64,000 nt of DNA from Methanomassiliicoccaceae archaeon (GCA_040776945.1 JAXGZN010000002.1:384001-448000); one strand, 5' to 3'. Positions 1 to 13,909 are shown, counted from the stretch's first letter. Translations and numbers: made by a program. Notes: generated by a model not told the origin, from the sequence alone.

Positions 1-145
1 GCTCCCAATCGCGGATGAATATTCCGATCCCCTCGAAATCGGTGGAGAATATCACCGTCGGCTCGGCGGCCTCGGAGGGCGCCGCCGGCATAAGCACGGC
101 TGTCATCACTGCTGCAAGGACAATGGCGGCGGTCGCGTTCCTCAT
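1..145 (-). CDS. N-terminal part of a secreted/surface protein (runs off the window)
   Basis: Manual translation from ATG at 145 gives MRNATAAIVLAAVMTAVLMPAAPSEAAEPTVIFSTDFEG..., a signal peptide followed by an 'F..DFEG' domain start; an AT-rich promoter-like tract lies at ~160-200. Confidence 0.7.
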   Translation of the reverse strand, partial: MRNATAAIVLAAVMTAVLMPAAPSEAAEPTVIFSTDFEGIGIFIRDWE

Positions 146-394
146 TCGCCCCACGGAGATATTTAGTTGAGTAGGAATTATTTAAAATCAACTATTATTA
201 TTCTCACCGTACGGTCCTTGTCGCTCGATGTAAGCTCGGTGGGCGCCCATGGCCCTTCAGCCATCGCCTCCCTGCCCCTCCTGTGCAAAAAGGCGGCCAT
301 CCTCATGTGCTGGCCCGCCGGCATCGAAAAGGACACCGGGCGAACGGTCGAGAACGCCGCGCGATAGAAGACGCGAGAAGCGCGCAGGCGATGC

Positions 395-643
395 TCACGC
401 CGTCGCGCTCTGGGCGATCGACGGTCTGGAGGCTCTGCTCATAAGCTCGTGGAAATGCTCCAGCGCGTATTGGTCGTTGATGCTCACGACGAGGACGTAC
501 TTGTCGCCCTCCATCCTTGCCCCCATGACCATGCCCAATGTGCGGCCGCCAACCTCGAACGGGCAGGACTCCTCGGCCATGAACCTCTCGTACATGGCCT
601 TAGTGACCTCGTCCTTGGAAGGAGGCGTAATATGCAGGATCAC
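395..643 (-). CDS. small hypothetical protein
   Basis: 3' part of ORF 395..748 reads like a natural protein (from GTG 643: ILHITPPSKDEVTKAMYERF...); an AT-rich TATA-like tract at ~645-700 lies just upstream; start uncertain. Confidence 0.5.
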   Translation of the reverse strand: MILHITPPSKDEVTKAMYERFMAEESCPFEVGGRTLGMVMGARMEGDKYVLVVSINDQYALEHFHELMSRASRPSIAQSATA

Positions 644-816
644 AAATTGATTATCTAACGAATAGTATAAATGCGATAGTATTCTAATTGCGATTATTGA
701 TAGCGACACTTGTCCCCGCGCCGGCCGCCGGCACGATAAGGGGCACATAGGCGGTCCGCCGTCCTGCGGACATATTTTAATCCTCCAATATCATAAGAAC
801 TGCCGGCGAGCAGGGG

Positions 817-2649
817 ATGACCGAGACATCTGTTCAAACAGCGGTCCTGAAGGACGGGGCATTGGCCTGGAGCGCCGACAGCAGTGCCTGCCTGGTCTAT
901 CCGGTCGGCAGGCAGAGGGCCCGCCTGCTTCTCGCCGCCGATCTCCTGGCCGGCTTCGCCGACCGCACCCTCGGCAACGCATCGCTCAGGCTCGCGACCG
1001 CCCTGGAAGGCTGGGAGAGGAGCAGAAGGCAGGCTGCTTCCGACCCCGCACTGACCGATAGGGAGAGAAGGAGCAAAGAGGCATCCATCGGAAAGGAGAC
1101 GGACAAGCTTAGAAAGGAGCTAGGCCAATTGGAAAGCTTCGACAAGGGCCGCTACCTGTACGAGGTGGCCAAGGCCACTCTATTAGAGGACTTCGAGTTC
1201 GGCCAGCTCACCAGCTTGGTGAGGAAGCACATCTCGGAGCGGGACGAGAGGGGGCAGAGCGAGCCGGCGGGCGAGGGGGCTGGGCCGGAGGGCGCTTGGA
1301 CCGCGGTCCAGGTGTCCCCTCAGGACAGGGACCTGCTGGAGGCGGTCCATGCAATCAAGGAGAGCTCGCCCGTATCCAAGGAGCTATTCCTGGAGAAGCG
1401 CATCCTGCCGGCGGCCTGGTTCTTGGAGTGGATGGTCCGCAACGAAGGCCTGGCCTTGGAGCTGGGCCGCTCGGAGCTCAAGGCGATGAAGGCCCTGGCC
1501 CCGCTGGAGAAGGACATGGGGCCCACGCTAATGACCTCTCACCGCGAGATCGTGCGCATGGCATGCGCTCTCCGGGCATTGAGCGGCGCCATGGACCTGG
1601 TCCAAGGAGCGAGGGGCGGGCCGGCGCGGCCGAGGCTGCGAAGCGATTACATCGCCTCCTTCCTACCCGCCTTCGCCGACTACCGCTCGCTGGCCGAGAG
1701 GTTCGACCGGGCCAAGGAAAAGGACCTCGCCGGCATCGTGGTAGTGGGCATGGGCGGCTCGGGCAAGACCACATTCCTTCGGAGATGCTACTCCCTGCTC
1801 CGCAGCGATCCCGAGAACCAAGGCCTCAGCGAGGAGATAGATCCCAAGAGCACCGCCTTCGTGGTCGGCCACATGTTCCGGGACATCACCGTGCCGATGT
1901 TCGACGGCAGGAAGGAGCTGACCCTATGCTGGATGGACACCGCCGGTTCGGAGGACTACCGCCTTCTGGGCCAGCAGCTTACGGCGTCCGTGCGAGAGCT
2001 GAGGAACAGGATGTTCCTGGGGAGACCGGCGGACTACAGCCTGCTGTTCATGTGGTCATATGAGCCCAGCTACGATCCTGGACGCGATGCCCAGGGTTTC
2101 GAGGACGTGCTCACTCGGTTCATGGAGGAGGTCGAGGACCTGGCCTATTATGACCTGGAGCTTCCCGGGAGGACGTACCTGCTTCTCAACAAGGCCGACG
2201 CGGCCGAAGGAAAGGGAACGGCCGAGCGGTTCGCGATCGAGCACGAGAGGCGGTTCCGGGCAGTGATGGAGAGGAAGGGCATGCCCGGGGAATGCCTAGG
2301 CTTCATATCAGTCCTCAACGGCTCGGACAAGGACATCGCGGACCGCTTCTCGGTCACCATGTTCGGTCTATCGGACCGTGAGTGGAAGAGCGCAACGGCA
2401 TCCGTCCGAGCGGGCATAAACCAGGGGATCATGGGAAACCTGCTCGATACGGAGGCCGCCATGCTGTTCAAGCGGGAGGTTTATGATCCGTGCTCAGGCC
2501 TCGGACAGGAGGAATATCTGAGAGAGACGGTCGCATGGATCGATAGGTACCTCCGGACGCCCGGCGGCGCGAACGTTTCGACGAGGGCGCTCCTAAGGAG
2601 CCTCAGGGCGTTCCTGAGCGGGGAGATGGATGGAGATGCGGTCGCTTAG
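817..2649 (+). CDS. 610-aa protein with a helical N-terminus and a Ras-superfamily-like small GTPase domain
   Basis: G1 GMGGSGKT, candidate G2 Thr (PKSTAF), G3 WMDTAGSEDY, G4 LLNKAD and G5-like FISVLNG, in canonical order. Confidence 0.8.
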   Translation: MTETSVQTAVLKDGALAWSADSSACLVYPVGRQRARLLLAADLLAGFADRTLGNASLRLATALEGWERSRRQAASDPALTDRERRSKEASIGKETDKLRKELGQLESFDKGRYLYEVAKATLLEDFEFGQLTSLVRKHISERDERGQSEPAGEGAGPEGAWTAVQVSPQDRDLLEAVHAIKESSPVSKELFLEKRILPAAWFLEWMVRNEGLALELGRSELKAMKALAPLEKDMGPTLMTSHREIVRMACALRALSGAMDLVQGARGGPARPRLRSDYIASFLPAFADYRSLAERFDRAKEKDLAGIVVVGMGGSGKTTFLRRCYSLLRSDPENQGLSEEIDPKSTAFVVGHMFRDITVPMFDGRKELTLCWMDTAGSEDYRLLGQQLTASVRELRNRMFLGRPADYSLLFMWSYEPSYDPGRDAQGFEDVLTRFMEEVEDLAYYDLELPGRTYLLLNKADAAEGKGTAERFAIEHERRFRAVMERKGMPGECLGFISVLNGSDKDIADRFSVTMFGLSDREWKSATASVRAGINQGIMGNLLDTEAAMLFKREVYDPCSGLGQEEYLRETVAWIDRYLRTPGGANVSTRALLRSLRAFLSGEMDGDAVA

Positions 2650-4894
2650 GGACCTCGACGCTGAGCTGGGCAGGCACAATCTCCTGTTCGCCCGGACGCC
2701 GGAAAAGGCACGATTGTGCCGACAGCTGTTGACCGGCAGCGTCCTGCTCCACGGATCGGGAGGGATGGGGAAGACAACCCTCATGCTCCATGCCCTGCGG
2801 GAGCTGGGAAGCATGGGAGGCGGCCTCCAAAGCGCCTCCCCGCCCGTCCCGGACGCTGGGCACTCATTCTACTTCGAGGACCTTAGCGCCTTCATCCGTT
2901 TCCTCGGGGTAAGGAAAAGACCGCTCACGGTGAACAGGGCCTCGATCGCCTTCAGATGGGACGAGGGCGGTGAGAGGAAGGAATCGACCATCACGCTCCG
3001 CGGACGGGGAGCATCGGTCCCCGAGGGCAAGGCCACGCCGATGGCGGCATCGTCACCGATCTTCCAGACCGACCGCCTGGTCGTCCGCTCCACGCTGGAG
3101 GCGGTCATAGGGCCGAGGTTCGACATGGAAGAGGTGGCAAAAAAGGCAGAGCCTACGCTGGCCCGCTTCTCCGAGACCCTGGGGCAGGCCATAGAGCAGG
3201 CAAGGAGAGGGAAAGGCAAGGATGCCATCCAGGGCGCGGGCGGGGGCGGGACCGGAAGGACTATGCCGGCGAGGATCGCAGGCGCCCTGGCCGCGGTCGT
3301 GGACGGCTCGGTCGGGGAGGGGAGCAGGGAGCGCGGCGTCGTCCTGAACTTCCTGGAGGAGGAGCTGGCAGCCCTCGTGGAAGAGTGCAACAGGGAGGTC
3401 TACCTCTCCGCGGCGTCTTTCCTCAGAGCGGAAGACGGACCTGTCCGGCGTTCGTCCCTCCGGGAGTTCGAGGATAGCCTGCTGGAGTTCCTGGACAACA
3501 GCAACCTCGATCGCCTTGTCCCCGGAGAGATGACCTTTTGGAGATGGTACATAGGGATCGATCACTTGGAGAGAGGGGTGCCCGGGTGGACCCTGGACAT
3601 CAAGAAGGAGGCGGTCCGCATGATCTATGAGAAACTGTCGGAGAAGGACGGCTTCCACGCGGTAATGGCCGTGGAGCCCAATCCCGCCCTGATCTTCGGG
3701 CACATGGGGCCAGGAGAGGTCAGGTCCGACAGGGAAGGCGCGGCCATCTCCTCTATGGAGGTCATCATGCCTCCCAAAGACGACCTCGTGCGCGAGAGCT
3801 CCAACTTCATTGTCGAGAACGTCGATGACCTCGGCGGCCTGCGGAAGGCCGATGTGCAGAAGGTGATGGCGGACCTCTACGACCACTGCAGAGGGCGGAT
3901 CAGGCTATACTATCTGGTGCGCAGCATCAAGAACCTTCCCGCGCTGCAAGCGCAGGGGATGGAGCAGGTAGAGCCGGACGCGTCGTTCCTGGACCGGCAG
4001 CTGGGGGATGCCCTGGGCCAGCTGGGCATGCGCTATGAGTACGATATCAGCATCAAGAACCTGCCGGCGGTGCAGCCCCTGTTGGAACTGGCGAGGATGA
4101 GGGAGCGGTCGGCCGCGGAGAGCGCCCCGCAGATATCCAGGAACGTGATGTCCTGGCTCCTGGACGTCCACCAGGTAGGCCCGGCGGTGGGGGCCGGCAG
4201 ATACCTGGCCGCCATGGAGGCCTATGGCGTCCTGAAGGTCGACGGGGACCGCATCGGGTTCTTCGACCCCTATGTGGAGTGGGAGATGCGTTCTTTGGCC
4301 AGGTCTGCGGACCATGGGGACCCTCCTCTGGCGATAGCCTTCCGTTCGGTCGACCGGCTGAACCGCTTCCTTTCCGTCGTGGACGAGGCAGACGTCCTGG
4401 CCCTCTCCAGCTACATCTCGGCGTCGCTCTCGAAATGGTCGGCCACGTCCAGGACCGATCCCGGGATATATGCCTCTCTGGTCTCCGCTCTGGAGGGCGG
4501 AGGGGACTTTCCCGACCGCAGGAGAAAGCTCGCTGCCTTGGCGGCCAGCGCCGTCCTCGGCGGCGTGCCCTTCCCCTCGGTCGACCTAGAGGGCCGCCGC
4601 CGGCAGATCATCGCTGAGCTGCTGAGGGGAGCGGTCAACGGCAGCGACCCGCGGCTGGCCTCGCTGGCCTCCCGGGCCGCGAGGAAGATGACCGAGCTGG
4701 CGGGGGCCAAGGGATGCGTGCTCTGCGGTGCTCACTTAGAGGACGGCCAGGTCATTTGCGCTTCCTGCGGAGCGGACTACCGGGACATATGCCCGTCCTG
4801 CGGAGAGAGTCTGGCCCCTCACTTCGCATACTGCGCCGGCTGCGGGGCCGAGGCGCCCCGGGACCGGACGGCCCGCCAGGGGACCGAGCTCTGA
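2630..4894 (+). CDS. P-loop ATPase (archaeal/STAND-like) with winged-helix region and C-terminal double zinc ribbon
   Basis: Walker A VLLHGSGGMGKTT; Walker B-like YIGIDHLE; GxP-like YDHCRGRIRL; wHTH-like YGVLKVDGDRIGFFDPYVEW; C-terminal CVLC..CASC..CPSC..CAGC; overlaps the upstream stop. Confidence 0.75.
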   Translation: MEMRSLRDLDAELGRHNLLFARTPEKARLCRQLLTGSVLLHGSGGMGKTTLMLHALRELGSMGGGLQSASPPVPDAGHSFYFEDLSAFIRFLGVRKRPLTVNRASIAFRWDEGGERKESTITLRGRGASVPEGKATPMAASSPIFQTDRLVVRSTLEAVIGPRFDMEEVAKKAEPTLARFSETLGQAIEQARRGKGKDAIQGAGGGGTGRTMPARIAGALAAVVDGSVGEGSRERGVVLNFLEEELAALVEECNREVYLSAASFLRAEDGPVRRSSLREFEDSLLEFLDNSNLDRLVPGEMTFWRWYIGIDHLERGVPGWTLDIKKEAVRMIYEKLSEKDGFHAVMAVEPNPALIFGHMGPGEVRSDREGAAISSMEVIMPPKDDLVRESSNFIVENVDDLGGLRKADVQKVMADLYDHCRGRIRLYYLVRSIKNLPALQAQGMEQVEPDASFLDRQLGDALGQLGMRYEYDISIKNLPAVQPLLELARMRERSAAESAPQISRNVMSWLLDVHQVGPAVGAGRYLAAMEAYGVLKVDGDRIGFFDPYVEWEMRSLARSADHGDPPLAIAFRSVDRLNRFLSVVDEADVLALSSYISASLSKWSATSRTDPGIYASLVSALEGGGDFPDRRRKLAALAASAVLGGVPFPSVDLEGRRRQIIAELLRGAVNGSDPRLASLASRAARKMTELAGAKGCVLCGAHLEDGQVICASCGADYRDICPSCGESLAPHFAYCAGCGAEAPRDRTARQGTEL

Positions 4895-4971
4895 CCGACG
4901 GCGGTGCGGGAGGACGGCGGACCGCCGATGCAGTCGCCTCTAAAGGAACGAAGGTCGAGATATTAGGATTC

Positions 4972-5010
4972 GGAAGAAAAGGATAAAAGAGAAGAGGGGG
5001 CGGCGCCCCG
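4972..5010 (-). terminator. putative terminator (short GC hairpin plus pyrimidine/U-rich run)
   Basis: Minus strand reads cggggcgccgccccctcttctcttttatccttttcttcc just after the stop of the 578-aa gene. Confidence 0.45.
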
Positions 5011-5017
5011 TTGCTCC

Positions 5018-6754
5018 CTACTTCCTGCGCCTGATCAGCAGGAACGCTCCGGCCGCGGCCGCAAGCACGATCGCGGCGATCCCGATCATTACCAGCGGGT
5101 CGGTGAAGAACGAGCCTGGGCCGCTGCTTCCGACGGAGAAGGTCTTCGAGCTGACGAGGACGTTCCCGTCCGAATCGGTGGCCTTGATGGTCAGGGTATG
5201 CTCGCCCGTCTTGAGGCCGGCGAAGGCCACCGACCTGCCGGACGGGTCCATGCTCACCATCTCGCCGTCGTCGAGCGAGTATTGCAGGCCGACCAAGGTC
5301 GCGCTGTCAAGGGCAACTGTGAAGTTGACCGTCACGTCCCCGTTGGGGGTTATCGACACATCATTGAACGTGATCCCCGGGGTCCCGTGGGAAAGGGTGA
5401 TCGCCGCGCTCTTGATGCTCTCCACGTTTCCGGCCAGGTCGGTCGCGTAATACTCGATGGTGTAGCTGCCGTCCCTGGCGAAGCCAACACCTGAGGAGTA
5501 CTCGTTCCAAGCGCCGCCGTTCACCCGGTAGTAGATGGCCTTGACCCCGGAGACAGCGTCGGTCGCACTTAGGGTGAAGGAAACGGACCCCTCGTAGCTG
5601 GTGCCGTTCCCGTTGCCGGAGAAGGCGATGGTAGATGCCGGCCTGGTGAGATCGATGGTGGTCGTAGCGTCCGCCGCGTTCCGCGCCGGCTCGATAACAT
5701 CGAGGTTGTCCGTGCCTCGAGTGAAGAACTCATAGGCACCCTCGCGGGGCGCGGTGAACTGGATGGTACGGGTGGTGTTGGGGAACTTCCCATCCGGCCT
5801 CAGGGATGTCTCGTACTTGATCCAGTTCCCGGTCCCGTCGATTCGGTAGTAGAGGTCGATCCACTTCATTCCCACCTGGGGATCGTTGTTCGTCCAGTTG
5901 ACGTTAAAGGTCAGGTTGTTCTGGTAAGCATCAAGGTAGTCCACGGCCGTGACCAGGTTCTCCGAGGGGAGCAGGTCGGTCCCGACCACGGTGATATCGT
6001 CGAGGAACACGCCCTTCCTCATCCCTCCGTTCACCATGTTGACGAACGGAGCCGGGCTGCTCGCGTCGCCCCCCGCCGGAGCGACGGTCCCGGACACGAA
6101 CTCGAAACCGACCCAGGTCGAGTTGCTGGGAATTACAATGGACTTCTGGATCCACCTCATGCTCCCCGCCTCCGCCTCGGTATCGGTCCATGCCACGTGC
6201 TTCACGCGGTTGTCGCCGGTCCCGGTGAAGTAGATGAGGTTGAGGAAGTCGTACCCCACGCTCTCGCCGGTCAAGGGCTGCTTGGCGTCCGAGGCCCCGG
6301 TGTCGGACCAGAACCAGAAGTTCACGGTCACGGTCCCATAGTATCTCGCCTGGGAGTTGAGCTGCTTCCGCATCACCGCGTCCATCCCGGTGTCGTAGCG
6401 GAGCACATGGCTCTTCTGAGTGGGATCGCTCGAAGCGGTCACATTGACGTTCTCCACCTGGGTCCCGTTGGCGTAGTAATGGGAGTTGAACCCGTTCTTG
6501 GCGCAATAGATCGAGAAGGTCCCGCTGTGGACCTCATGCTTGGTCCTGCACCAAGTATCATAATCGTTGGCGGTGTTGGCGTCATAACGGTCCCATTGCG
6601 CGGCCCAGAGGTTGAAGGACCCTTCTTCCGCGCCTTCGGAGATGAACGTCTGCTCGGACGGCAAGGCCGCGCTCACCCCATGAGGGATGGCCGTGACCAG
6701 CGTCGTCGCGCACAATAGAAATGCAATGGCTATGCTGAACCAGGAGCTTTTCAC
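5018..6754 (-). CDS. secreted, C-terminally membrane-anchored surface protein with Ig-like/OmpL47-type beta domains
   Basis: Signal peptide; FTLSATDAVSGVKAIYYRVNGGAW...YYATDLAGNVE motif; C-terminal TM helix followed by RRRK. Confidence 0.85.
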   Translation of the reverse strand: MKSSWFSIAIAFLLCATTLVTAIPHGVSAALPSEQTFISEGAEEGSFNLWAAQWDRYDANTANDYDTWCRTKHEVHSGTFSIYCAKNGFNSHYYANGTQVENVNVTASSDPTQKSHVLRYDTGMDAVMRKQLNSQARYYGTVTVNFWFWSDTGASDAKQPLTGESVGYDFLNLIYFTGTGDNRVKHVAWTDTEAEAGSMRWIQKSIVIPSNSTWVGFEFVSGTVAPAGGDASSPAPFVNMVNGGMRKGVFLDDITVVGTDLLPSENLVTAVDYLDAYQNNLTFNVNWTNNDPQVGMKWIDLYYRIDGTGNWIKYETSLRPDGKFPNTTRTIQFTAPREGAYEFFTRGTDNLDVIEPARNAADATTTIDLTRPASTIAFSGNGNGTSYEGSVSFTLSATDAVSGVKAIYYRVNGGAWNEYSSGVGFARDGSYTIEYYATDLAGNVESIKSAAITLSHGTPGITFNDVSITPNGDVTVNFTVALDSATLVGLQYSLDDGEMVSMDPSGRSVAFAGLKTGEHTLTIKATDSDGNVLVSSKTFSVGSSGPGSFFTDPLVMIGIAAIVLAAAAGAFLLIRRRK

Positions 6755-6977
6755 GCCGGGCGATTGAAAATATCTCCGTATAAATCTTGCTCCTTGATTG
6801 GTACGTTGGTGTGCTTAACGACCAATAGGGGGCACCTGCTCGACCGGTCCGCGGCAGCGTGCTGATGGACGGCGAGGGGCGGTCCGCAGCGTCCATTTCC
6901 CAGCGTCTTCTTGGTGTTAAGGAATTGATATGCAAGGGGAACCATTCATAATGGGGCACGTGATGAGGTAGAGACCG

Positions 6978-9446
6978 ATGGTCGAGGCCAATGACCGACC
7001 GAGCTGCGGTCCAGCGGTCGACAATTCGCTGCATGAGGACATCAAGGCGCAGATAGAGGAGGGGCTTGACCGCTCAGGCTTTTTAATATTCGTTCTGAGC
7101 AGTGAGATGAGGATAGAGTTCATCAGCAGATCGGCGGCGGCCTTCATGGGAAGGCGGCCTGAGGACGTGATCGGCCGCACGCCCGGGGACCTCGGTCTTC
7201 CGGTGCAATTGCATGAGTCCATCAAGCGGCTGGTCAACGAGGCGCTGACCTCCAAAAAGGTCCTGAGAGGAACATACGTGGCGAGCTTGAGGGAGATCAA
7301 GCAGTTCGAGTATGAGATCTCGCCAATCTTCGCCGGGGGCCCCAGGCCGAAGGCCGTCCTCGCCTTTGTCTATGACCGCACCGCCCAGGCATTGGAGAGG
7401 AAGGTGCTGGAAGCCATCGTCAAGGTGAACGACATAGTGAGGCCGTCCCTTGGTTCGGATGACCTTGTGAAAAGGACCGTACGCGCTTTGTCAGGCTCGC
7501 TTAACGACGACGCCTTCGCCCTGGTGATAGATGACAACGGAACTTGGAGGGTCGACCACTCGTTCGACCTACCTCCGGAGGAGATGAGCTCCTTGGAGAA
7601 CAGCATGGTCTGCTTGATCTCCGGCCTGATCGGCGGGAACGCGCCCGTGTCGATAGGCGACATTTCGCGCGATCCCCGGGTTCCGAGCGAAATCGCCCAC
7701 AGGACCGGGGCCGGCCCCCTTCTTGTGATCCCGGTGGAACTGGCCCACGGCGTGAAGATCGCCCTGCTGTTCTTCCGCTTCGATGATCGGCCGTTCGGCA
7801 GCATCGAGATGGACCTGGGGGAGAAGATGGCGTCCTCGGTCGCCGTGGCCATCACCGACATGCTGATGGTCCGGGACCTCAGGGCCGCCGATCTGGAAAA
7901 GGAGAGCATGCTGGTCCGCCTGTCCAAGGAAAGGGAGAACCTGGCAGCCATCTTCGAGGCCAACCCGTTGGCCCTGGCCCTGTTCCAACGGGACGGGGAG
8001 AACCTTCGGCTGGCGCTATGCAGCAAGATATTCCGGGACGATACGTACGGGGCCGTGCCCCACCCCCTCGAGGGAAAGCGGATGGAGGAGCTTGGCATCC
8101 CCGAGGAGACCGCCTATCTGCGGAAGATGGCGGAAGCGGCCCTGAGGACCGGCCAGACCCAGGTGTCCGAGGAACATGTCCACCATACTGGACGGGAACA
8201 GTTCCCAACGAAGATAATGATGGCCCCGATCTCCCGGCAGCCCGACACGGTCCTCATGGCCGGCGTGAGCATATCGGACCTGGTCAACGCCAAAAAGCAG
8301 CTGGAGGAGTACGCCACCCGGATAGAGGCGGAGCGTGTGCGGCTCCGCACGATAATCGACACCTTGCCGGTCGGGGTCGTGCTGGTCGATGCCTCCGGCA
8401 AGGTCATCGAGACGAACAGCACCAGAAGGGCCGAGATCTGGGGCACCTCGCCCAAGGACCGGGCCTTGGCCAACATCTATCCGTCAAGGGCGAGATGGTC
8501 CAACACCGGCATGTCCGTGGCCAAGGACGAGTGGCCTATCGCACGGGCCTTGAGGAAGGGGGAATGCGTCAAAGGCGAAATGATCGATATAACCAGGTTC
8601 GACGGCAAGCGGGGCACGGAGCTGATATCGGCCGCCCCCATCCACGATGCCTCGGGCAAGCGCATCGGGGCCGTAGGAATCATGCAGGACATAACCGAGC
8701 AGAGGCAATTGGAACAGGACGCCGTGGAAGCGAAGGAACGTGCGGAAACGTTCCTCGACCTGCTCACCCATGATGTCCAAGGGCACAACGCGGCCATATC
8801 CGGGTACATCCAGATGGCCCTGTCCAAGGACAAGCAGGGTAAGCGGAAGGACGACCTACAAAAGGCCTTGGAGGCCATCAAGGCGTCCACCGAACTGATC
8901 GATACCGTGCGGAAGATACAGATGGTGGAGACGCACGATACCGCACACGGCCACATAGAGCTGTCCTCGACATTGGAAGATGTGGCCTCCGAGATAACGG
9001 CGGTCGGAGGGAAGAGGGTCCACATCGAGATGAGCACCAAGCCGGACAGCTTCATACTGGCATCGCCCATGATCCGGGAGGTCTTCATGAACCTGCTCAT
9101 CAACTCGGTCAGGCACTCCGAGGAGGAGGTCCATATAACGGTGAGGCAGAACCGCATCTATGACGGCGGGCGGGAATATCACAAGTTCATCATCGAGGAC
9201 GACGGGCCGGGCATACCGGACGATGTCAAGCCGAGCATCTTCCTGCGCAAGTATCGCGGCCGGACCAAGGCCAAGGGCAGCGGCCTCGGACTGTACCTCA
9301 CAAAAAGGCTGGTGGAGGAGCATGGAGGGAAGATATGGATGGAGGACCGCGTGCCCGGAAACCATGCCAAGGGAGTAAGGTTCATCGTCCACCTCCCGAC
9401 CGTGTCCATGCCCTCCGTCCACGCGACAGGCACCGAGCACGCATGA
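6978..9446 (+). CDS. cytoplasmic PAS/GAF/PAS sensor histidine kinase
   Basis: H-box LLTHDVQG, N-box NLLINSVRH, G1 EDDGPGI, G2 GSGLGLY; PAS/PAC motifs (AVGIMQDITEQRQLE); no TM segment. Confidence 0.93.
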   Translation: MVEANDRPSCGPAVDNSLHEDIKAQIEEGLDRSGFLIFVLSSEMRIEFISRSAAAFMGRRPEDVIGRTPGDLGLPVQLHESIKRLVNEALTSKKVLRGTYVASLREIKQFEYEISPIFAGGPRPKAVLAFVYDRTAQALERKVLEAIVKVNDIVRPSLGSDDLVKRTVRALSGSLNDDAFALVIDDNGTWRVDHSFDLPPEEMSSLENSMVCLISGLIGGNAPVSIGDISRDPRVPSEIAHRTGAGPLLVIPVELAHGVKIALLFFRFDDRPFGSIEMDLGEKMASSVAVAITDMLMVRDLRAADLEKESMLVRLSKERENLAAIFEANPLALALFQRDGENLRLALCSKIFRDDTYGAVPHPLEGKRMEELGIPEETAYLRKMAEAALRTGQTQVSEEHVHHTGREQFPTKIMMAPISRQPDTVLMAGVSISDLVNAKKQLEEYATRIEAERVRLRTIIDTLPVGVVLVDASGKVIETNSTRRAEIWGTSPKDRALANIYPSRARWSNTGMSVAKDEWPIARALRKGECVKGEMIDITRFDGKRGTELISAAPIHDASGKRIGAVGIMQDITEQRQLEQDAVEAKERAETFLDLLTHDVQGHNAAISGYIQMALSKDKQGKRKDDLQKALEAIKASTELIDTVRKIQMVETHDTAHGHIELSSTLEDVASEITAVGGKRVHIEMSTKPDSFILASPMIREVFMNLLINSVRHSEEEVHITVRQNRIYDGGREYHKFIIEDDGPGIPDDVKPSIFLRKYRGRTKAKGSGLGLYLTKRLVEEHGGKIWMEDRVPGNHAKGVRFIVHLPTVSMPSVHATGTEHA

Positions 9447-9525
9447 GCGGCGGACCTCGCGCCCCACCGTGCCGAAGGTTATCATGTTTATATCCTGAAT
9501 ACGCCTTCGCATGGACGGTGCAAGG

Positions 9526-9780
9526 ATGCTGAGGGAGTCGCGTTTTTTTAGGGCCTTCGTCCTTACCGCGTGGTTCTATACCTTCCTGCTATGGTCGTAC
9601 ATCGCGGTCAGGATCATAACGTACGATTACATCGTATTTGACCCGTTCATATGGTCGATACCTTGGCTGTCCTTCGGGCAGCTGGGCGCGATGGCGTTCA
9701 TCGCCAGCTCGGTGCTCATGTTCACGTACCTCTATCTCTGGGGGTTTGGAAGGACTTGGCGGCCCGGCACCGGCCATTGA
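9526..9780 (+). CDS. small two-helix membrane protein
   Basis: Two hydrophobic, aromatic-rich segments; TATA-like tttata at ~9487. Confidence 0.7.
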   Translation: MLRESRFFRAFVLTAWFYTFLLWSYIAVRIITYDYIVFDPFIWSIPWLSFGQLGAMAFIASSVLMFTYLYLWGFGRTWRPGTGH

Positions 9781-10142
9781 CCCGCCGGGAGCTGAGAGGT
9801 CGAAAAAGATGACCCATCTACCGCGGTAACGTCCCCTTCCCTCTCCGTCCAGCCAACCATAGGATCAAGGCAGGCAGGACCTATAGTTGCGCATATACGG
9901 CAGCATCGGAAGGGGCATCTGAAGCTCCGGATCCCTGCCGCCGCCCATAAGAACTGGGTTGAAGGGCCCCGACCTCCCCTGCAGGGTCCCTCCAACGTTG
10001 AGATCGAAGGTCCAACGGCCCCCACCGCCGGGATGGGCATAGGCGCCACCAGGCCATCTCTTCTTCTGCGCTTCCGCAGCACCTATCGCGCCAGATGACC
10101 TAATGGTTCTAGAAGCATGCCTCGGCTTCTGCGTCAAGGCGG

Positions 10143-10799
10143 TCAACCGATCATGAGGGACGAGAGCACAGTATTGCCCTCTCGTGCCCTGGCGGGAAGC
10201 CTCTTTCCGCAGGTTGGACAGGAGCGGAAGCTGAGGAGGACGATGCCGCCGCATTCGGGGCACTCCGCCGTCGGCGCCCTAGGGTCAAATCCGCAGTAGG
10301 GGCAGAGGTCAGGGTCTCCCCTCATCGTGCGGCCGCAGAGCGCACAAGCGTACCCGCCACCCGGTGGCGACCTCCCGGCGAGGCCAGCGGGGGGACCGGC
10401 GGCCACGGAACAGAGGGAGTCCATAGCGCTCTCCGCCCCACGCACGTCATGGGCCAATATCCTCTCTTCGACGGCATCCAACTCCTTGGAGGTCATGCCC
10501 AGGGCCCTGGACCCCCTCTTCATCCCTGCCAGGCGGTGGAGCGACGGGAGCATCAGGCCGACGCGGCCCTCGTAAAGGGATATCGCCGACCAAGCTTCGT
10601 TGACCATGCCCTTGGCCAGCAGGTCCTCGATGGAGCGGAGGTCCGCCTCCAACGCCTGCTTGGCGCAGCCCAGCTCCGCGAACGGTCCCTTGGAAAGCTC
10701 GCCCCTTAGCTCGATCACCCGCTGATGCGGCCGCACCATCGAATCAAGGCACGCGCTGATGTTCCTCGTTCTCGTAAGCAGTTCCCGGGCAATGTCCAA
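10143..10799 (-). CDS. helical protein with C-terminal double zinc ribbon
   Basis: CALC..CPYC..CPEC..CPTC; probable TTG start at 10799 preceded by a GGGGGTGA SD-like sequence. Confidence 0.7.
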   Translation of the reverse strand: MDIARELLTRTRNISACLDSMVRPHQRVIELRGELSKGPFAELGCAKQALEADLRSIEDLLAKGMVNEAWSAISLYEGRVGLMLPSLHRLAGMKRGSRALGMTSKELDAVEERILAHDVRGAESAMDSLCSVAAGPPAGLAGRSPPGGGYACALCGRTMRGDPDLCPYCGFDPRAPTAECPECGGIVLLSFRSCPTCGKRLPARAREGNTVLSSLMIG

Positions 10800-10807
10800 G
10801 GCCGGGC

Positions 10808-11224
10808 CTATTCGCTCACCCCCCAGAACCCGCTCACGCCGTCCAGCCCTATGGCCGCCCGGTCCACGGTCAGACCCCTGTCCCTCGCCTCCATGACCTT
10901 GGACTCGATGGAGATCAGCTCCGACCTGCCCTGCCTGACGACCTCCATGACCTGATCCAGCTCCTGTCGCGCCAGGTCGGTCCGCCTTATGCATTCGCGG
11001 TACCGCTTCTGCCGCAAGAGCGTTCGGGACGAGTCCAGCTCAGCAGAGAACTCGGCAACGGCGAAAGGAGGAAGGGACCTAATCCCGATCGACAGCTCCT
11101 CGATCCCCCTCTCGGCCACAGGCCGGTTCTTGCGGCCGTCCCAGAGAGCGAACGACACGGTGAGAACGATTATCAGCAGAGCTGACACGATCAGCAACGA
11201 TGGGACGATGAGCCCGCCCTGCAA
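10808..11224 (-). CDS. N-terminally membrane-anchored coiled-coil protein
   Basis: N-terminal TM helix then charged helical sequence; GAGGTG SD upstream; 8 bp from the next gene. Confidence 0.7.
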   Translation of the reverse strand: MQGGLIVPSLLIVSALLIIVLTVSFALWDGRKNRPVAERGIEELSIGIRSLPPFAVAEFSAELDSSRTLLRQKRYRECIRRTDLARQELDQVMEVVRQGRSELISIESKVMEARDRGLTVDRAAIGLDGVSGFWGVSE

Positions 11225-11339
11225 GATGGTTCCACCTCGTTCTTGGATGGGTCTCGGAATGCCTTATATTTTCCCCGGCCTAGCCGACCCCCACTCCTGC
11301 AAAGGGGACAGATGAACAAGATGGAAAGGAGCCCCCGCC

Positions 11340-11580
11340 GTTCGAAGTAAGGTAAGCCGTCATTATAATATTAATATTCATAATATATTAAGCGAGCAAC
11401 GTGTCCGGACAACGTCCCGCATCATACTAAAAATGATTCCTTGTATTATCCATTTTCATAACTGGCTTTGATATTGGCGTACCGTCCTTTTATAGACACC
11501 CCGAACGTCTCATGCCTTTACTGCTAAGGTATTGCCGTTTCGTTCGTTTATAAATATAATATTATAAACATAAACTGAAG
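11340..11580. promoter_or_regulatory. AT-rich divergent promoter region with TATA-like boxes
   Basis: cattataatattaatattcataatatatta (~11361-11390) and tttatataaatataatattataaa (~11547-11570) in otherwise GC-rich DNA between divergent genes. Confidence 0.55.
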
Positions 11581-11623
11581 GGCATGGCAGGACCGGTCAG
11601 CCGCCGGACATAGGGGCGATCCC

Positions 11624-13909
11624 ATGAACAGGATCACAAGATTTGTGAAGAAAAGGCCGAGGAGCGCGTTGATCGCGATAGCGCTCGTAGGAACGCTGAT
11701 GCTCATGGCAACCCTGGCACCCCTTGCCACGGAAACTTCCAATGCAGGTTACGTGCTGAGCAGGAAGAACGCTTCCCTCAGCCTGAGCGTTGGATCGACC
11801 GAGGTCAAGGTCGGGGAAAAGGTCCACCTTTCCGGCATGCTTTCCGGAGTTGCCAACAAGGCCTATGCCAAGATCTCGTTGTCGGTCGTCATGCCCGACG
11901 GTTCGTTGACCTATCCCGCCCAGGGGACGACCACCTACACGTCCAGGACCGGCGGTTTCTCCATCGATCTCGTACCCAAGGTGCCCGGCAGGTACACGGT
12001 CACCGCCTCCTATCAAGGCGGCCGAGTTGATGTTTCCGCCAGCAAGGCGATCACCGCACTGGCCGCCAGAAGCACGGCGGCCCCGGTCAAGGCTGCGACC
12101 TCCATCGGCCTGGCATTGGGCTCTTCGAGCGTCACTGTCGGCGAGGCCGTGATCGCCAACGGGACGCTGACCTCAGGCGCAGGCGTGGTCGGGGCCCCGA
12201 TCGGCGTGTCCATAACCCTTCCGGACGGGTCCTCGGTGAACATGGGCCGCTCGCAGATAACCACAGGTGCCATGGGCGCATTCTCCTTCGAGTATGTTCC
12301 GACCATGGTCGGCAACCACAATCTGACGGCGACCTACGCCGGCAACGACACTCTCAAGGGATCTACGACCAGCGTGTCGTTCGCGGCCATATCGGAGGTC
12401 GCGCCAGAGCCGCCGATCGCCACATCCCTCACCCTGACCCCGTCCGCGGCGACAATCGAGGTCGGGAAGAACATACGCGCTTCGGGCCTGCTGACCGGCC
12501 TTACGCCAGTGTCCGGCGAGACGGTCGATGTTCGCGTGACCCTCCCCGACGGGTCCGCCGTCAATCCGGCCCAGGGACCAACGGTGACAACAGGCCAGGA
12601 CGGAACGTTCTTGATCGACTACACGCCAAGGGCCATCGGGAACCACAGGTTCACCGCGACCTTCTCTGGCAGCTCTCAGCTGAGGGGCTCTTCGGTCTCC
12701 GCCGCCTTCACCGTAACCGAGCCGGCGGCACCTCCCGTCCCGGACCCGGGCACCGGGGGCGACCCTCCGGTGGCGCCGCTATCGTACGCCTTCACCGTCA
12801 CCTCCTCAGGTCCCAACTACGTAACGAAGAGCGCCTCCGGGGCCACGGTCTACTCCGGGACCAACGCCGCGACGGCCATCCAGACCGCGCTCAACTCCCT
12901 GACCTCCGGTCGGACGTCCAAGCAGGCGGTCCTGCTCCAGGGAGACTTCAGCGTGACAAAGGCCATAAGCATGCCCAGCTACACCATCTTGGTACTGGAG
13001 GGCAAGGTCACGTGGGGCTCTAGCGCCGTAGGGTACATCCTTACCGCCGTCAACAAGAACAACTTCGAGGTCCGTGGAGGGGAATGGGACGGCAACAAGG
13101 CGTCCCGGACCATGACGTCGAGCAGCAATCCTTTCGCCTTCGAGCGCTGCAGCGACGTGATCATCTCGAACCTCAAGGTACACGACGGCCCGTACGACAA
13201 CATCGAGTTCGAGTACAGCGAGAGGATCACCATCTCCAACGTGGAGAGCTACAACACCCGGTGGACGTCCATCGTCATGGCGTACTCCAACAACTGCATC
13301 ATAGAGAACTGCCACATCCACGACTCCGACCAGGGCGGGTGCTACTTCTACTGCGAGGACGACGGCGTGGCCCAGACCATCAACAACAACATCATCCGCA
13401 ACAACCTGGTGGAGCGCACCTGGACCTCTGGACTGAGCTTCAGCATCAGGGGTGTGGAGGACCGCACCGACGGCGGCCTCATCGAAGGCAACACGGTCAT
13501 CGACGGCGGCCGGGACACCGATCATCCGGGCATCAACATCGGCTGGGGCGCCGGCCGCCTTGCCACCAACACCATCGTGCGGAACAACCTGATCTATTCG
13601 ACCTCCCGCGCCGGGGAGGGCGGGATCGAGTTCGCCGGGAGCGGCTGCGTGTGCGAGGGCAACACCATCCGCGACACCCCGGGATACGCGATACACCTGG
13701 TGGGCAACAATAACCGCGTGACAGGCAATTCGATCACCAACGCCGGCTGGGACGACGGCGGGGCCGGGGTGCACATCGAGGGCAGCAACAATATGGTAAC
13801 GGACAACACCATCATGAACTGCCGCACCTACGGCATCGCGGTGTACAGCGGCACTGGGAACACGATATCGCCGAACACCTTCTCTGGGAACAATAGGAAC
13901 GTCCGTTGA
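11624..13909 (+). CDS. secreted protein with three Ig-like repeats, a Pro-rich linker and a right-handed parallel beta-helix (pectin lyase-like) domain
   Basis: Signal/TM peptide; three repeats of 'V.lPDGS...TT...G.F...y.P...G....TAty.G'; Asn-rich PbH1 repeats (NNIIRNNLV, NNRVTGNSI, NNMVTDNTI). Confidence 0.88.
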   Translation: MNRITRFVKKRPRSALIAIALVGTLMLMATLAPLATETSNAGYVLSRKNASLSLSVGSTEVKVGEKVHLSGMLSGVANKAYAKISLSVVMPDGSLTYPAQGTTTYTSRTGGFSIDLVPKVPGRYTVTASYQGGRVDVSASKAITALAARSTAAPVKAATSIGLALGSSSVTVGEAVIANGTLTSGAGVVGAPIGVSITLPDGSSVNMGRSQITTGAMGAFSFEYVPTMVGNHNLTATYAGNDTLKGSTTSVSFAAISEVAPEPPIATSLTLTPSAATIEVGKNIRASGLLTGLTPVSGETVDVRVTLPDGSAVNPAQGPTVTTGQDGTFLIDYTPRAIGNHRFTATFSGSSQLRGSSVSAAFTVTEPAAPPVPDPGTGGDPPVAPLSYAFTVTSSGPNYVTKSASGATVYSGTNAATAIQTALNSLTSGRTSKQAVLLQGDFSVTKAISMPSYTILVLEGKVTWGSSAVGYILTAVNKNNFEVRGGEWDGNKASRTMTSSSNPFAFERCSDVIISNLKVHDGPYDNIEFEYSERITISNVESYNTRWTSIVMAYSNNCIIENCHIHDSDQGGCYFYCEDDGVAQTINNNIIRNNLVERTWTSGLSFSIRGVEDRTDGGLIEGNTVIDGGRDTDHPGINIGWGAGRLATNTIVRNNLIYSTSRAGEGGIEFAGSGCVCEGNTIRDTPGYAIHLVGNNNRVTGNSITNAGWDDGGAGVHIEGSNNMVTDNTIMNCRTYGIAVYSGTGNTISPNTFSGNNRNVR

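Follow-up and report, generated by a model that had tools for sequence, protein, structure and literature searches.

An overlapping Ras/Rag-like GTPase and ORC/STAND-like ATPase gene pair as the candidate core of a lineage-specific module in Methanomassiliicoccus

Nucleotide switches that are paired or arranged in cascades have been described in several systems close in design to the locus considered here. In the "GTPase-centric" DO-GTPase/GAP1 conflict systems, a TRAFAC GTPase is proposed to act as a GTP switch (Kaur et al. 2020, PMC7159879). In the nSTAND2 two-gene systems (PMC8195603) and the ParA-STAND/HINPO systems (bioRxiv 10.64898/2026.10.19.760177), two nucleoside triphosphatases (NTPases) form conflict-related cascades for which a nucleotide switch with two steps that sets a threshold has been proposed, and in nSTAND2 pairs one of the partners has eroded motifs (PMC8195603). 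A further point of comparison is Group 1 Rup, a Ras-like GTPase without the catalytic Gln, for which a GAP residue acting in trans has been proposed (Wuichet and Sogaard-Andersen 2014, PMC4316618). The criteria for STAND proteins used below were taken from PMC7583971. Here we describe two overlapping genes, G1 and P2, located in a 64,000-nucleotide stretch of the genome of a Methanomassiliicoccaceae archaeon (GCA_040776945.1 JAXGZN010000002.1:384001-448000; hereafter the window, with positions counted from its first letter).

Methanomassiliicoccales are methanogens of guts and anaerobic digesters, and to our knowledge little has been established about their cell biology or about how they defend themselves against viruses. 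The G1 gene (817..2649, + strand) is an open reading frame (ORF) of 610 amino acids with an ATG start, and P2 (2636..4894, + strand) encodes 752 amino acids, or 754 if counted from the ATG at 2630; the P2 residue numbers given below follow the 754-residue version. The start of P2 is most likely the ATG at 2636, because the P2 homologs begin with MRSL in 12 of 12 cases and one deposited version of the same protein has 752 amino acids. This ATG falls within the final codons of G1, whose TAG stop codon occupies 2647-2649, and the two genes thus overlap by 14 nucleotides. The first-pass annotation of the window, made from the sequence alone, had proposed two overlapping co-oriented genes, and these ORFs agree with it. 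In our judgement the evidence is evenly balanced as to whether the G1/P2 pair forms the core of a module of four or more genes that is specific to the Methanomassiliicoccus lineage and works as a two-NTPase switch complex. The analyses described below demonstrate the folds and motifs of the module, its linkage and co-occurrence, and the purifying selection acting on it.

G1 was detected in 7 of 201 sampled genomes of the order, that is, in 7 of the 11 Methanomassiliicoccus genomes (the genome of the window, here called the own genome, included) and in none of the 190 others. Full-length P2 occurred in exactly the seven genomes carrying G1, always immediately downstream and on the same strand, with an overlap of 14 nucleotides in six genomes and 4 nucleotides in one, and all three short metagenome contigs showed the same arrangement. 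Hence, the pair is always linked wherever it is found, and only in one genus; conserved linkage, together with a confident interface, was what the first-pass annotation had named as support for its proposal. Among the genus genomes without the pair, three are 93-99% complete and the fourth 67%. In a 5.8-billion-cluster collection G1 and P2 had 14 relatives each, to which a P2 profile search added none, and a G1 profile search against 1.84 billion representatives returned seven proteins, all of them family members or fragments. When 185,579 species genomes were scanned, 5 loci were found, all in Methanomassiliicoccus or in Methanomassiliicoccaceae metagenome-assembled genomes; every carrier encountered is a genome assembled from metagenomes. 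None of the 16 cluster members examined carries a source-given name, and a full-text literature search, supplementary tables of the cited papers aside, revealed no description of the family or the module. An apparent frameshift in G1 of one genome (G051) was dismissed, as it coincides with an NN assembly gap.

In the AlphaFold2 model of G1 (mean predicted local distance difference test score, pLDDT, 83.0; predicted template modelling score, pTM, 0.74), residues 1-301 are mostly helical, residues ~304-520 (1726..2376, + strand) form a small-GTPase domain and residues 520-601 a helical tail. The canonical G domain spans residues 304-516 and has the six-stranded fold, with strands b1 (304-313), b4 (407-414), b5 (453-458) and b6 (491-496), helix a1 (317-330) and an antiparallel b2/b3 hairpin at 349-374. 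In an alignment of 13 sequences with identity down to 43%, the P-loop at 311-319 (G311 and G313-G-S-G-K-T-T319), T346 (in IDPKSTAF), D374-T-A-G377, N458-K-x-D461 (NKAD in G1) and S498 were invariant in all 13, and M312 was kept in at least 90% of them. The GxxxxGK[ST], G2 Thr, DxxG and [NT]KxD motifs are thus present in order, and 50 of the 105 residues at 296-400 are invariant. The G5 motif is only SAK-like, with the invariant S498, and the position corresponding to Ras Gln61 is occupied by Ser in 12 and by Ala in 1 of the 13 sequences. The first-pass annotation had described a helical N-terminus, a GTPase domain with all five motifs complete and a helical tail; the model and the invariant motifs support this layout.

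Searches with the structure and with profiles pointed in the same direction. The G1 model gave 18 Foldseek matches at E<=0.001, mostly to Rho, Rab and Rap, and the hhalign alignment of the G1 G domain with the small Ras-like family of the order was collinear, with a score of 38.4 that was reached by none of 40 column shuffles (maximum 25.6). Even the NKxD segment alone scored 28 against the Ras-like family, and none of 30 shuffles reached this value. Considering the invariant motifs, the model, the Foldseek matches and the profile alignment together, G1 is a real GTPase-fold protein; by the model and the alignment, its centre is a Ras/Rag-like GTPase domain whose GTP-binding motifs are intact and to which further predicted domains are joined. 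At the same time, G1 stays below every Pfam, NCBIfam and PADLOC cut-off: it scored 12.5-12.6 bits for Ras (PF00071; cut-off 21.6) and 13.3-15.7 bits for Roc (PF08477; cut-off 27), and in a whole-genome search it was the second-best Ras match with 12.5 bits. PADLOC matched only AriA (E 0.0022) and PtuA (E 0.039), both at the P-loop and not significantly, PHROGs returned nothing for G1, and sequence-profile searches of the PDB gave nothing significant. Judged by its sequence, G1 falls in no curated family. A canonical single-domain Ras/Roc-like GTPase (Ras 99.7 bits, Roc 84.3 bits) is encoded elsewhere in the own genome, outside the window, at C1:266353-266826; this canonical small family occurred in 64 of the 121 genomes that were sampled from the order and in 0 of 40 genomes of one family (f7).

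The best AlphaFold2 model of P2 (pLDDT 74.4, pTM 0.57) begins with strand 38-41, the P-loop, helix 45-60 and strand 78-84, after which an inserted domain of approximately residues 85-264 (2882..3421, + strand) follows with four long strands (99-160) and three helices (166-259). The nucleotide-binding domain continues with helix 277-289, so that the insertion sits between strand 2 and this helix, and then with strand 306-312, helix 322-338 and strands 342-348 and 372-377. The C-terminal half comprises a helical lid (383-493), a winged-helix-like unit (504-559; 4139..4306, + strand) with helices 504-513, 521-531 and 547-559 around the hairpin 535-544, and further helices at 566-688. It ends with a double zinc ribbon (DZR) at 696-739 (4715..4846, + strand), where the model confidence is low. 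The Walker A motif G42-x-GGMGKTT50 (2753..2779, + strand) follows a STAND-type (L)FGRxxE helix, and both this combination at the N-terminus and, in the model, the fusion of a lid (HD1) and a winged helix to the nucleotide-binding domain are as expected of a STAND protein. G44-G-M-G-K-T-T50, G77-H78, W110-D111, D311-H312-x-E314 and eight Cys at 696-738, which form four CxxC pairs in the ribbon, are invariant, as are 24 of the first 65 residues. The insertion is the least conserved stretch of the N-terminal half, with a mean column identity of 0.49-0.58 at residues 100-232 versus 0.74-0.80 at residues 233-352.

The putative Walker B motif of P2, I-G-I-D311-H-L-E314 (3545..3571, + strand), lies on strand 306-312, which runs between helices 277-289 and 322-338 in the model and ends in D311. 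The residue after D311 is an invariant His and not a second acidic residue, while E314 is likewise invariant; the motif may have a catalytic role. At the level of secondary structure, the sensor 1 region would correspond to strand 342-348, in which no Arg is conserved and after which comes E-P-N351. We also considered D111 (hhhhWD, 63 amino acids past K48) as Walker B, and D311 was preferred because the model places it on strand 306-312 and D111 in the poorly conserved inserted beta-hairpin 99-124. The first-pass annotation had read the same succession of Walker A, insertion, IGIDHLE at the Walker B position, winged helix, helical region and double zinc ribbon, with which the model and the fold searches concur.

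The best PDB matches of the P2 model in Foldseek were a chain of the oocyte cytoplasmic lattice of the NLR family, Avs3, SAMD9, EfAvs5, Cdc6, PAB2304, Apaf-1 and NOD2, with E values of 3e-4 to 6e-3, and the structural alignments to ORC2, SSO1545, PAB2304, CED-4 and plant NLRs extended to approximately residue 560. RuvBL1/2, in which an extra domain likewise separates Walker A from Walker B, were among the Foldseek rows as well. At the sequence level, AAA_16 matched 13 of 13 P2 members (best E 3.9e-6, 25.4 bits with a cut-off of 32.6), NB-ARC 13 of 13 and nSTAND6 4 of 13 (best 25.1 bits versus 27.7), and the hhalign probability of P2 with two archaeal AAA_16 families was 74-89%. P2 stayed below the Pfam cut-offs for AAA_16, NB-ARC, NACHT and nSTAND1/5/6, of which it covers only the first 35-64 profile positions. 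The only family above threshold was Pfam DZR (PF12773; 30.3 bits, cut-off 27.3), and PHROGs matched at the level of the zinc ribbon only. By its model, P2 is thus a predicted ORC/STAND-clade AAA+ NTPase that carries an insertion and continues into lid, winged helix, helical C-terminal region and DZR; apart from the DZR it falls short of every sequence-family threshold in Pfam, NCBIfam and PADLOC, and its insertion and D-H-L-E Walker B are unusual. Compared with STAND proteins, SSO1545/PAB2304 and ORC/Cdc6, the insertion of ~180 amino acids lies between strand 2 and the helix preceding strand 306-312, and P2 differs from STAND and ORC proteins also in its D-H-L-E Walker B, in lacking an N-terminal effector domain and in having a DZR in place of repeat arrays. 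The possibility that P2 is a paralog of the G1 GTPase domain was rejected: the hhalign probability was 30-69% with the P-loop and at noise level without it (score 18.6, below the shuffle maximum of 21.4), the P-loop-less comparison of P2 with the Ras family scored 13, a value that 4 of 30 shuffles equalled or exceeded, and the model has an AAA+ fold.

Clustering of the flanking ORFs of the seven loci revealed two further genes that accompany the pair. c6 (10143..10829, - strand; ~225 amino acids) encodes a helical domain with a C-terminal double zinc ribbon, and c8 (10808..11224, - strand; 138 amino acids) a protein with one predicted N-terminal transmembrane helix and a cytoplasmic coiled-coil-like part. 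Of the 11 genus genomes, the seven with G1 and P2, and only these, also had full-length c6 and full-length c8; among the 201 genomes of the order full-length c6 was confined to these seven, the remaining matches being to the zinc ribbon alone. The pair had been described in the first-pass annotation as a self-contained unit, which does not hold since c6 and c8 co-occur with it. The distance of c6 from the pair was 38 bp, 0.7-0.9 kb (three genomes), 5.3, 6.4 or 9.6 kb, c8 was arranged divergently to G1 or in tandem with c6, and together c6 and c8 lay 38 bp to 9.6 kb from the pair in at least three arrangements. The hydrophobic segment of c8 scored 2.4-2.9 in all four full-length sequences, the remainder being charged and helical, and Pfam assigned c8 to no family. 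By hhalign, the DZR of c6 is similar to that of P2 (probability 96.7%); neither c6 nor c8 otherwise resembled P2 in these comparisons, and hhalign of c6 and c8 against G1 gave nothing. Across the order, DZR frames of ~222 or 330-340 amino acids often hold a single in-frame TGA (sometimes TAG or TAA), as in the own genome at C2:198463-198621, which could reflect recoding, two genes or an error, and giant DZR-containing frames of ~2000 amino acids recur.

The pairwise identities of the four proteins correlate with r values of 0.92-0.98 (10 non-independent pairs drawn from 5 genomes). Two deep types can be distinguished: from one type to the other, G1 and P2 share 42-49% identity and c6 and c8 25-34%, compared with 92-96% for EF-2 and 75-82% for the pyrophosphatase of these genomes. 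The wider context is not syntenic, the pyrophosphatase gene that adjoins the module in one subclade (G021) being on another contig in the own genome, and the four genes therefore stay together through rearrangement. Flanking markers were also not syntenic across the genus when the module-less sites were compared. The ratio of nonsynonymous to synonymous substitution rates (dN/dS) was 0.22-0.58 for G1 and P2, with dS near saturation in most pairs, which shows that both genes are under purifying selection. GC content is high (64.7% versus 59.7%), within the top 3% of 4-kb windows.

With the DO-GTPase/GAP1 systems the module shares a conserved partner gene directly downstream of a TRAFAC GTPase and the presence of zinc ribbons, as well as frequent membrane-spanning components and variable non-enzymatic Ig/FNIII-type proteins nearby (PMC7159879). 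It differs from them in that only 4 of 13 G1 members matched the Pfam DO-GTPase1/2 profiles (best E 0.038 and 0.14), and in the own genome G1 scored 12.4 bits for DO-GTPase (cut-off 27), at the P-loop only. The GAP1 families were absent from the Pfam matches of the 13 P2 members, P2 being a P-loop AAA+ NTPase, and the zinc ribbon lies at the C-terminus of the partner in the module but at the N-terminus of the GTPase in the DO-GTPase systems (PMC7159879). Moreover, the module was found in one archaeal genus only and lacks a recognisable effector. Like the nSTAND2 and ParA-STAND/HINPO cascades, it consists of adjacent P-loop NTPases (adjacent or fused in the cascades), one of which belongs to the ORC/STAND clade (PMC8195603; bioRxiv 10.64898/2026.10.19.760177). 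However, its second NTPase is a TRAFAC Ras/Rag-like GTPase and not ParA (SIMIBI) or a second STAND, it is without HEPN, TIR or another effector, unlike these cascades, and membership at the sequence level was not found.

Group 1 Rup, like the module, is encoded together with a membrane protein and one of coiled-coil type, frequently also with a histidine kinase, but Rup is a single-domain protein of <240 amino acids whereas G1 has 610, the partners are non-homologous, and no STAND-like ATPase is described in Rup systems (PMC4316618). The limits given there for MglA/Rup (a single domain of 150-240 amino acids and, for MglA, an MglB partner; PMC4316618) exclude G1, and no Roadblock/MglB was found among the flanking ORFs. 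As to ROCO proteins, G1 had no LRR, kinase or COR match (COR at E<=1, the tail 520-601 not having been searched alone), and in the 12 flanking ORFs of the own locus neither Roadblock nor LRR, COR or nuclease families were present at E<=1e-5, as the first-pass annotation had also noted. That annotation had further stated that the pair matches no recognised system. This is correct with respect to membership, as no named PADLOC system matches, but not with respect to kind, since paired or cascaded NTPase switches in conflict systems are already published (PMC7159879, PMC8195603, bioRxiv 10.64898/2026.10.19.760177). Because the parts are of known kinds and the design principle has been published, we regard the module as a variation on a known design rather than as categorically new. 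Of the proposed dual switch as a whole, the reading of the domains and the linkage stood, and the self-containment and the novelty of kind did not.

Upstream of G1 we found a TATA/BRE-like element, GGACATATTTTAA (768..780, + strand), about 37-49 nucleotides 5' of the start codon, and a GGAC.T(A/T)TTTTAT-like element was located ~35-45 nucleotides before the G1 start in 7 of 7 genomes. This pattern is scarce in the own genome (2-6 matches depending on how it is defined), and the element probably functions as a promoter. It was not found upstream of c8 in a pattern search of the own genome. Between this element and the start codon lies a purine-rich, Shine-Dalgarno-like leader, GGCGAGCAGGGG (805..816, + strand; GGTGAG.GGGG in relatives), and a GGTGA-type purine stretch was present 7-12 nucleotides ahead of the G1 start in 7 of 7 upstream regions, the start codon itself being ATG, TTG or GTG across the genomes. 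The pair is covered at 99-100% identity by contigs from four metatranscriptome libraries that four studies prepared from activated sludge and anaerobic digesters. In all four libraries contigs start at 812-815, and two contigs span the G1/P2 junction; the contig ends give a weak hint of a transcript start nearby and of transcription from that promoter. A leaderless mRNA, which these contig starts might also suggest, was rejected, as the TATA-like element ~40 nucleotides upstream and the Shine-Dalgarno-like GGTGA fit a short leader better; the predicted start of the transcript is near 803-812.

If G1 and P2 form a switch complex, the following scheme can be envisaged. The two proteins would be co-translated and would assemble in the cytoplasm into a complex that c8 and c6 would keep close to the membrane. 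P2 would behave in a STAND-like manner, a cue read by its C-terminal helical and zinc-ribbon part leading to nucleotide exchange and oligomerisation, and the D-H-L-E sequence in place of an acidic pair might slow hydrolysis and give a long-lived "on" state. G1 would provide a second, GTP-dependent step, in which hydrolysis would need a residue from P2 in trans or dimerisation, because the catalytic Gln is replaced. The output could come from the 300 N-terminal residues of G1 or from c8 in the membrane. The two main nucleotide-switch classes of eukaryotic and bacterial innate immunity, Ras-like GTPases and STAND ATPases of the NLR type, are joined here in one pair that is probably coupled in translation and whose sequences have diverged too far for family models to detect them, and should a role in defence or signalling be confirmed, the module would be an archaeal GTPase-plus-STAND cascade and offer a handle on virus-host conflict in methanogens. 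Otherwise, its value would lie in the demonstration that fold-level searches identify orphan genes missed by sequence libraries, and in a clean four-gene set for experiments.

A conflict role (antiviral or abortive) of the module is a tentative proposal, well short of probable overall, although we lean towards it over a role in cell-envelope signalling because of the fast divergence of the genes and their patchy presence in the genus. In its specific form, an archaeal immune system in which a STAND/ORC sensor ATPase and a Ras/Rag-like GTPase make up a two-step cascade, tethered to the membrane by c8/c6, with the N-terminal domain of G1 or c8 as the effector and with two deep allelic types in one genus, the proposal is a doubtful one. 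The conflict reading is weakened by the absence of effector, mobility and defence-island context, and several results weigh against it or against the switch complex on which it builds. No recognisable effector domain was found in the module, no integrase or transposase among 67 flanking ORFs, and no significant PADLOC match for G1, P2, c6, c8 or three window neighbours; among 58 neighbours from 6 of the 7 loci, PADLOC placed defence-like genes next to the module at only one. Profile, cluster and species-genome searches found no relatives outside one genus, tblastn against phages and plasmids and a search of IMG/VR gave no matches for G1 and P2, and the codon usage is typical of the own genome, that is, native. 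Defence systems usually spread horizontally, and confinement to a single genus is unusual for them. As to the proteins themselves, the P2 model was built from 13 sequences and the other four of the five models reached pLDDT values of 60.5-63.4, and past the P-loop (residues 262-500) the hhalign probability of P2 with the AAA_16 STANDs and Orc1 of the order was <1%. In addition, the co-occurrence of c6 and c8 may reflect no more than two or three losses of one region in kin that are not independent, and the RNA libraries may hold DNA, their contigs showing neither strand nor level.

The results that count against a conflict role include native codon usage and the lack of mobile-element genes, and these would fit an envelope or surface role, in which the module would control the placement, secretion or turnover of the adjoining Ig-like surface proteins or relay a signal with a PAS/GAF kinase, by analogy with the prokaryotic Ras-like polarity and signalling modules (Rup group 1, MglA). 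Each of the seven loci has at least one Ig-like or beta-helix surface protein, predicted to be secreted or anchored, at a distance of no more than a few kb from the module, four of them have a PAS/GAF histidine kinase from one cluster within ~6 kb, and c8 is predicted to be membrane-anchored; Group 1 Rup, which is also without the Gln, is accompanied by a coiled-coil and a membrane protein and by a kinase or c-di-GMP protein (PMC4316618). Yet surface proteins are common in these genomes: the cluster-2 family occupies 6-7 places in the own genome, and the cluster-5 family of Ig-like proteins, which we rejected as a fifth specific component, recurs in 10 of the 11 genus genomes, module-less ones included. 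The association is merely suggestive because the families have such paralogs elsewhere, also in module-less genomes, and those next to the module vary by locus. The module is, moreover, dispensable, given the three nearly complete genomes that lack it. We therefore see an envelope role as possible but improbable.

A nucleic-acid-directed role, with P2 as an ORC/Cdc6-like DNA- or RNA-binding ATPase whose winged helix and ribbons would load on or sense a foreign replicon or a chromosomal site and with G1 as the regulator, appears distinctly unlikely. P2 does combine a winged helix with a double zinc ribbon, and STAND proteins descend from ORC/Cdc6-like ATPases and in some cases sense nucleic acids (PMC8195603). 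However, the fold matches to NLR, CED-4 and the archaeal ATPase tie with ORC2 within 1-2 Z units, the Orc1/Cdc6 family TIGR02928 has its two matches in the own genome elsewhere (C1:751445 and C1:672161, the genuine genes) and none at the P2 locus, the hhalign probability of P2 with Orc1 is 2-6%, no conserved DNA-metabolism genes are nearby, and c8 points to the membrane. It is very unlikely, finally, that G1 and P2 are mere neighbours, independent proteins linked by descent in a young genus with one or both NTPase sites being inactive relics. The carriers all belong to one genus, in which linkage may be inherited and not selected, and the P2 Walker B lacks the second acidic residue; but the overlap has been kept in 7 of 7 genomes even though the proteins are only 42-64% identical and the locus has moved, conservation in both proteins peaks at the nucleotide-binding motifs, and dN/dS remains below 0.6.

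The surroundings of the pair in the window are crowded with large predicted surface proteins, encoded at 5018-6754 (- strand), at 11624-13909 (+ strand) and, on the own contig, at C2:382307-384154, which reaches into window positions 1-154. They contain Ig-like repeats, CarboxypepD_reg, right-handed beta-helix/NosD domains and C-terminal anchors, and the minus-strand Ig-like genes among them flank the pair as the first-pass annotation had indicated. An 822-residue PAS/GAF/PAS histidine kinase without an adjacent response regulator is encoded at 6978-9446 (+ strand), and ABC transporters and housekeeping genes are further neighbours; the PADLOC matches of the ABC transporters near the module are generic. 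The single locus with adjoining defence-like genes is that of genome G054, where directly downstream of c6 (L026 12854-17743) a cluster encodes Fic/SoFic-like (SoFic/PDC-S04), PDC-M38A/PD-Lambda-5_A-like and Mrr-like proteins and a D12 adenine methyltransferase. No Rfam families were detected in window positions 1-12000 and no tRNA in the 19-kb locus. The ORFs at 249-650 (+ strand) and 395-748 (- strand), 5' of G1, have no conserved counterpart at the other loci and look like chance frames in GC-rich DNA. Within the surface gene at 5018-6754, contigs from two runs of the RNA libraries skip 127 or 155 nucleotides at window positions 6111-6267, and loose ends of several contigs lie at 6063, 6239 and 6334, a pattern that suggests strain-level length variation in a repeat of this gene.

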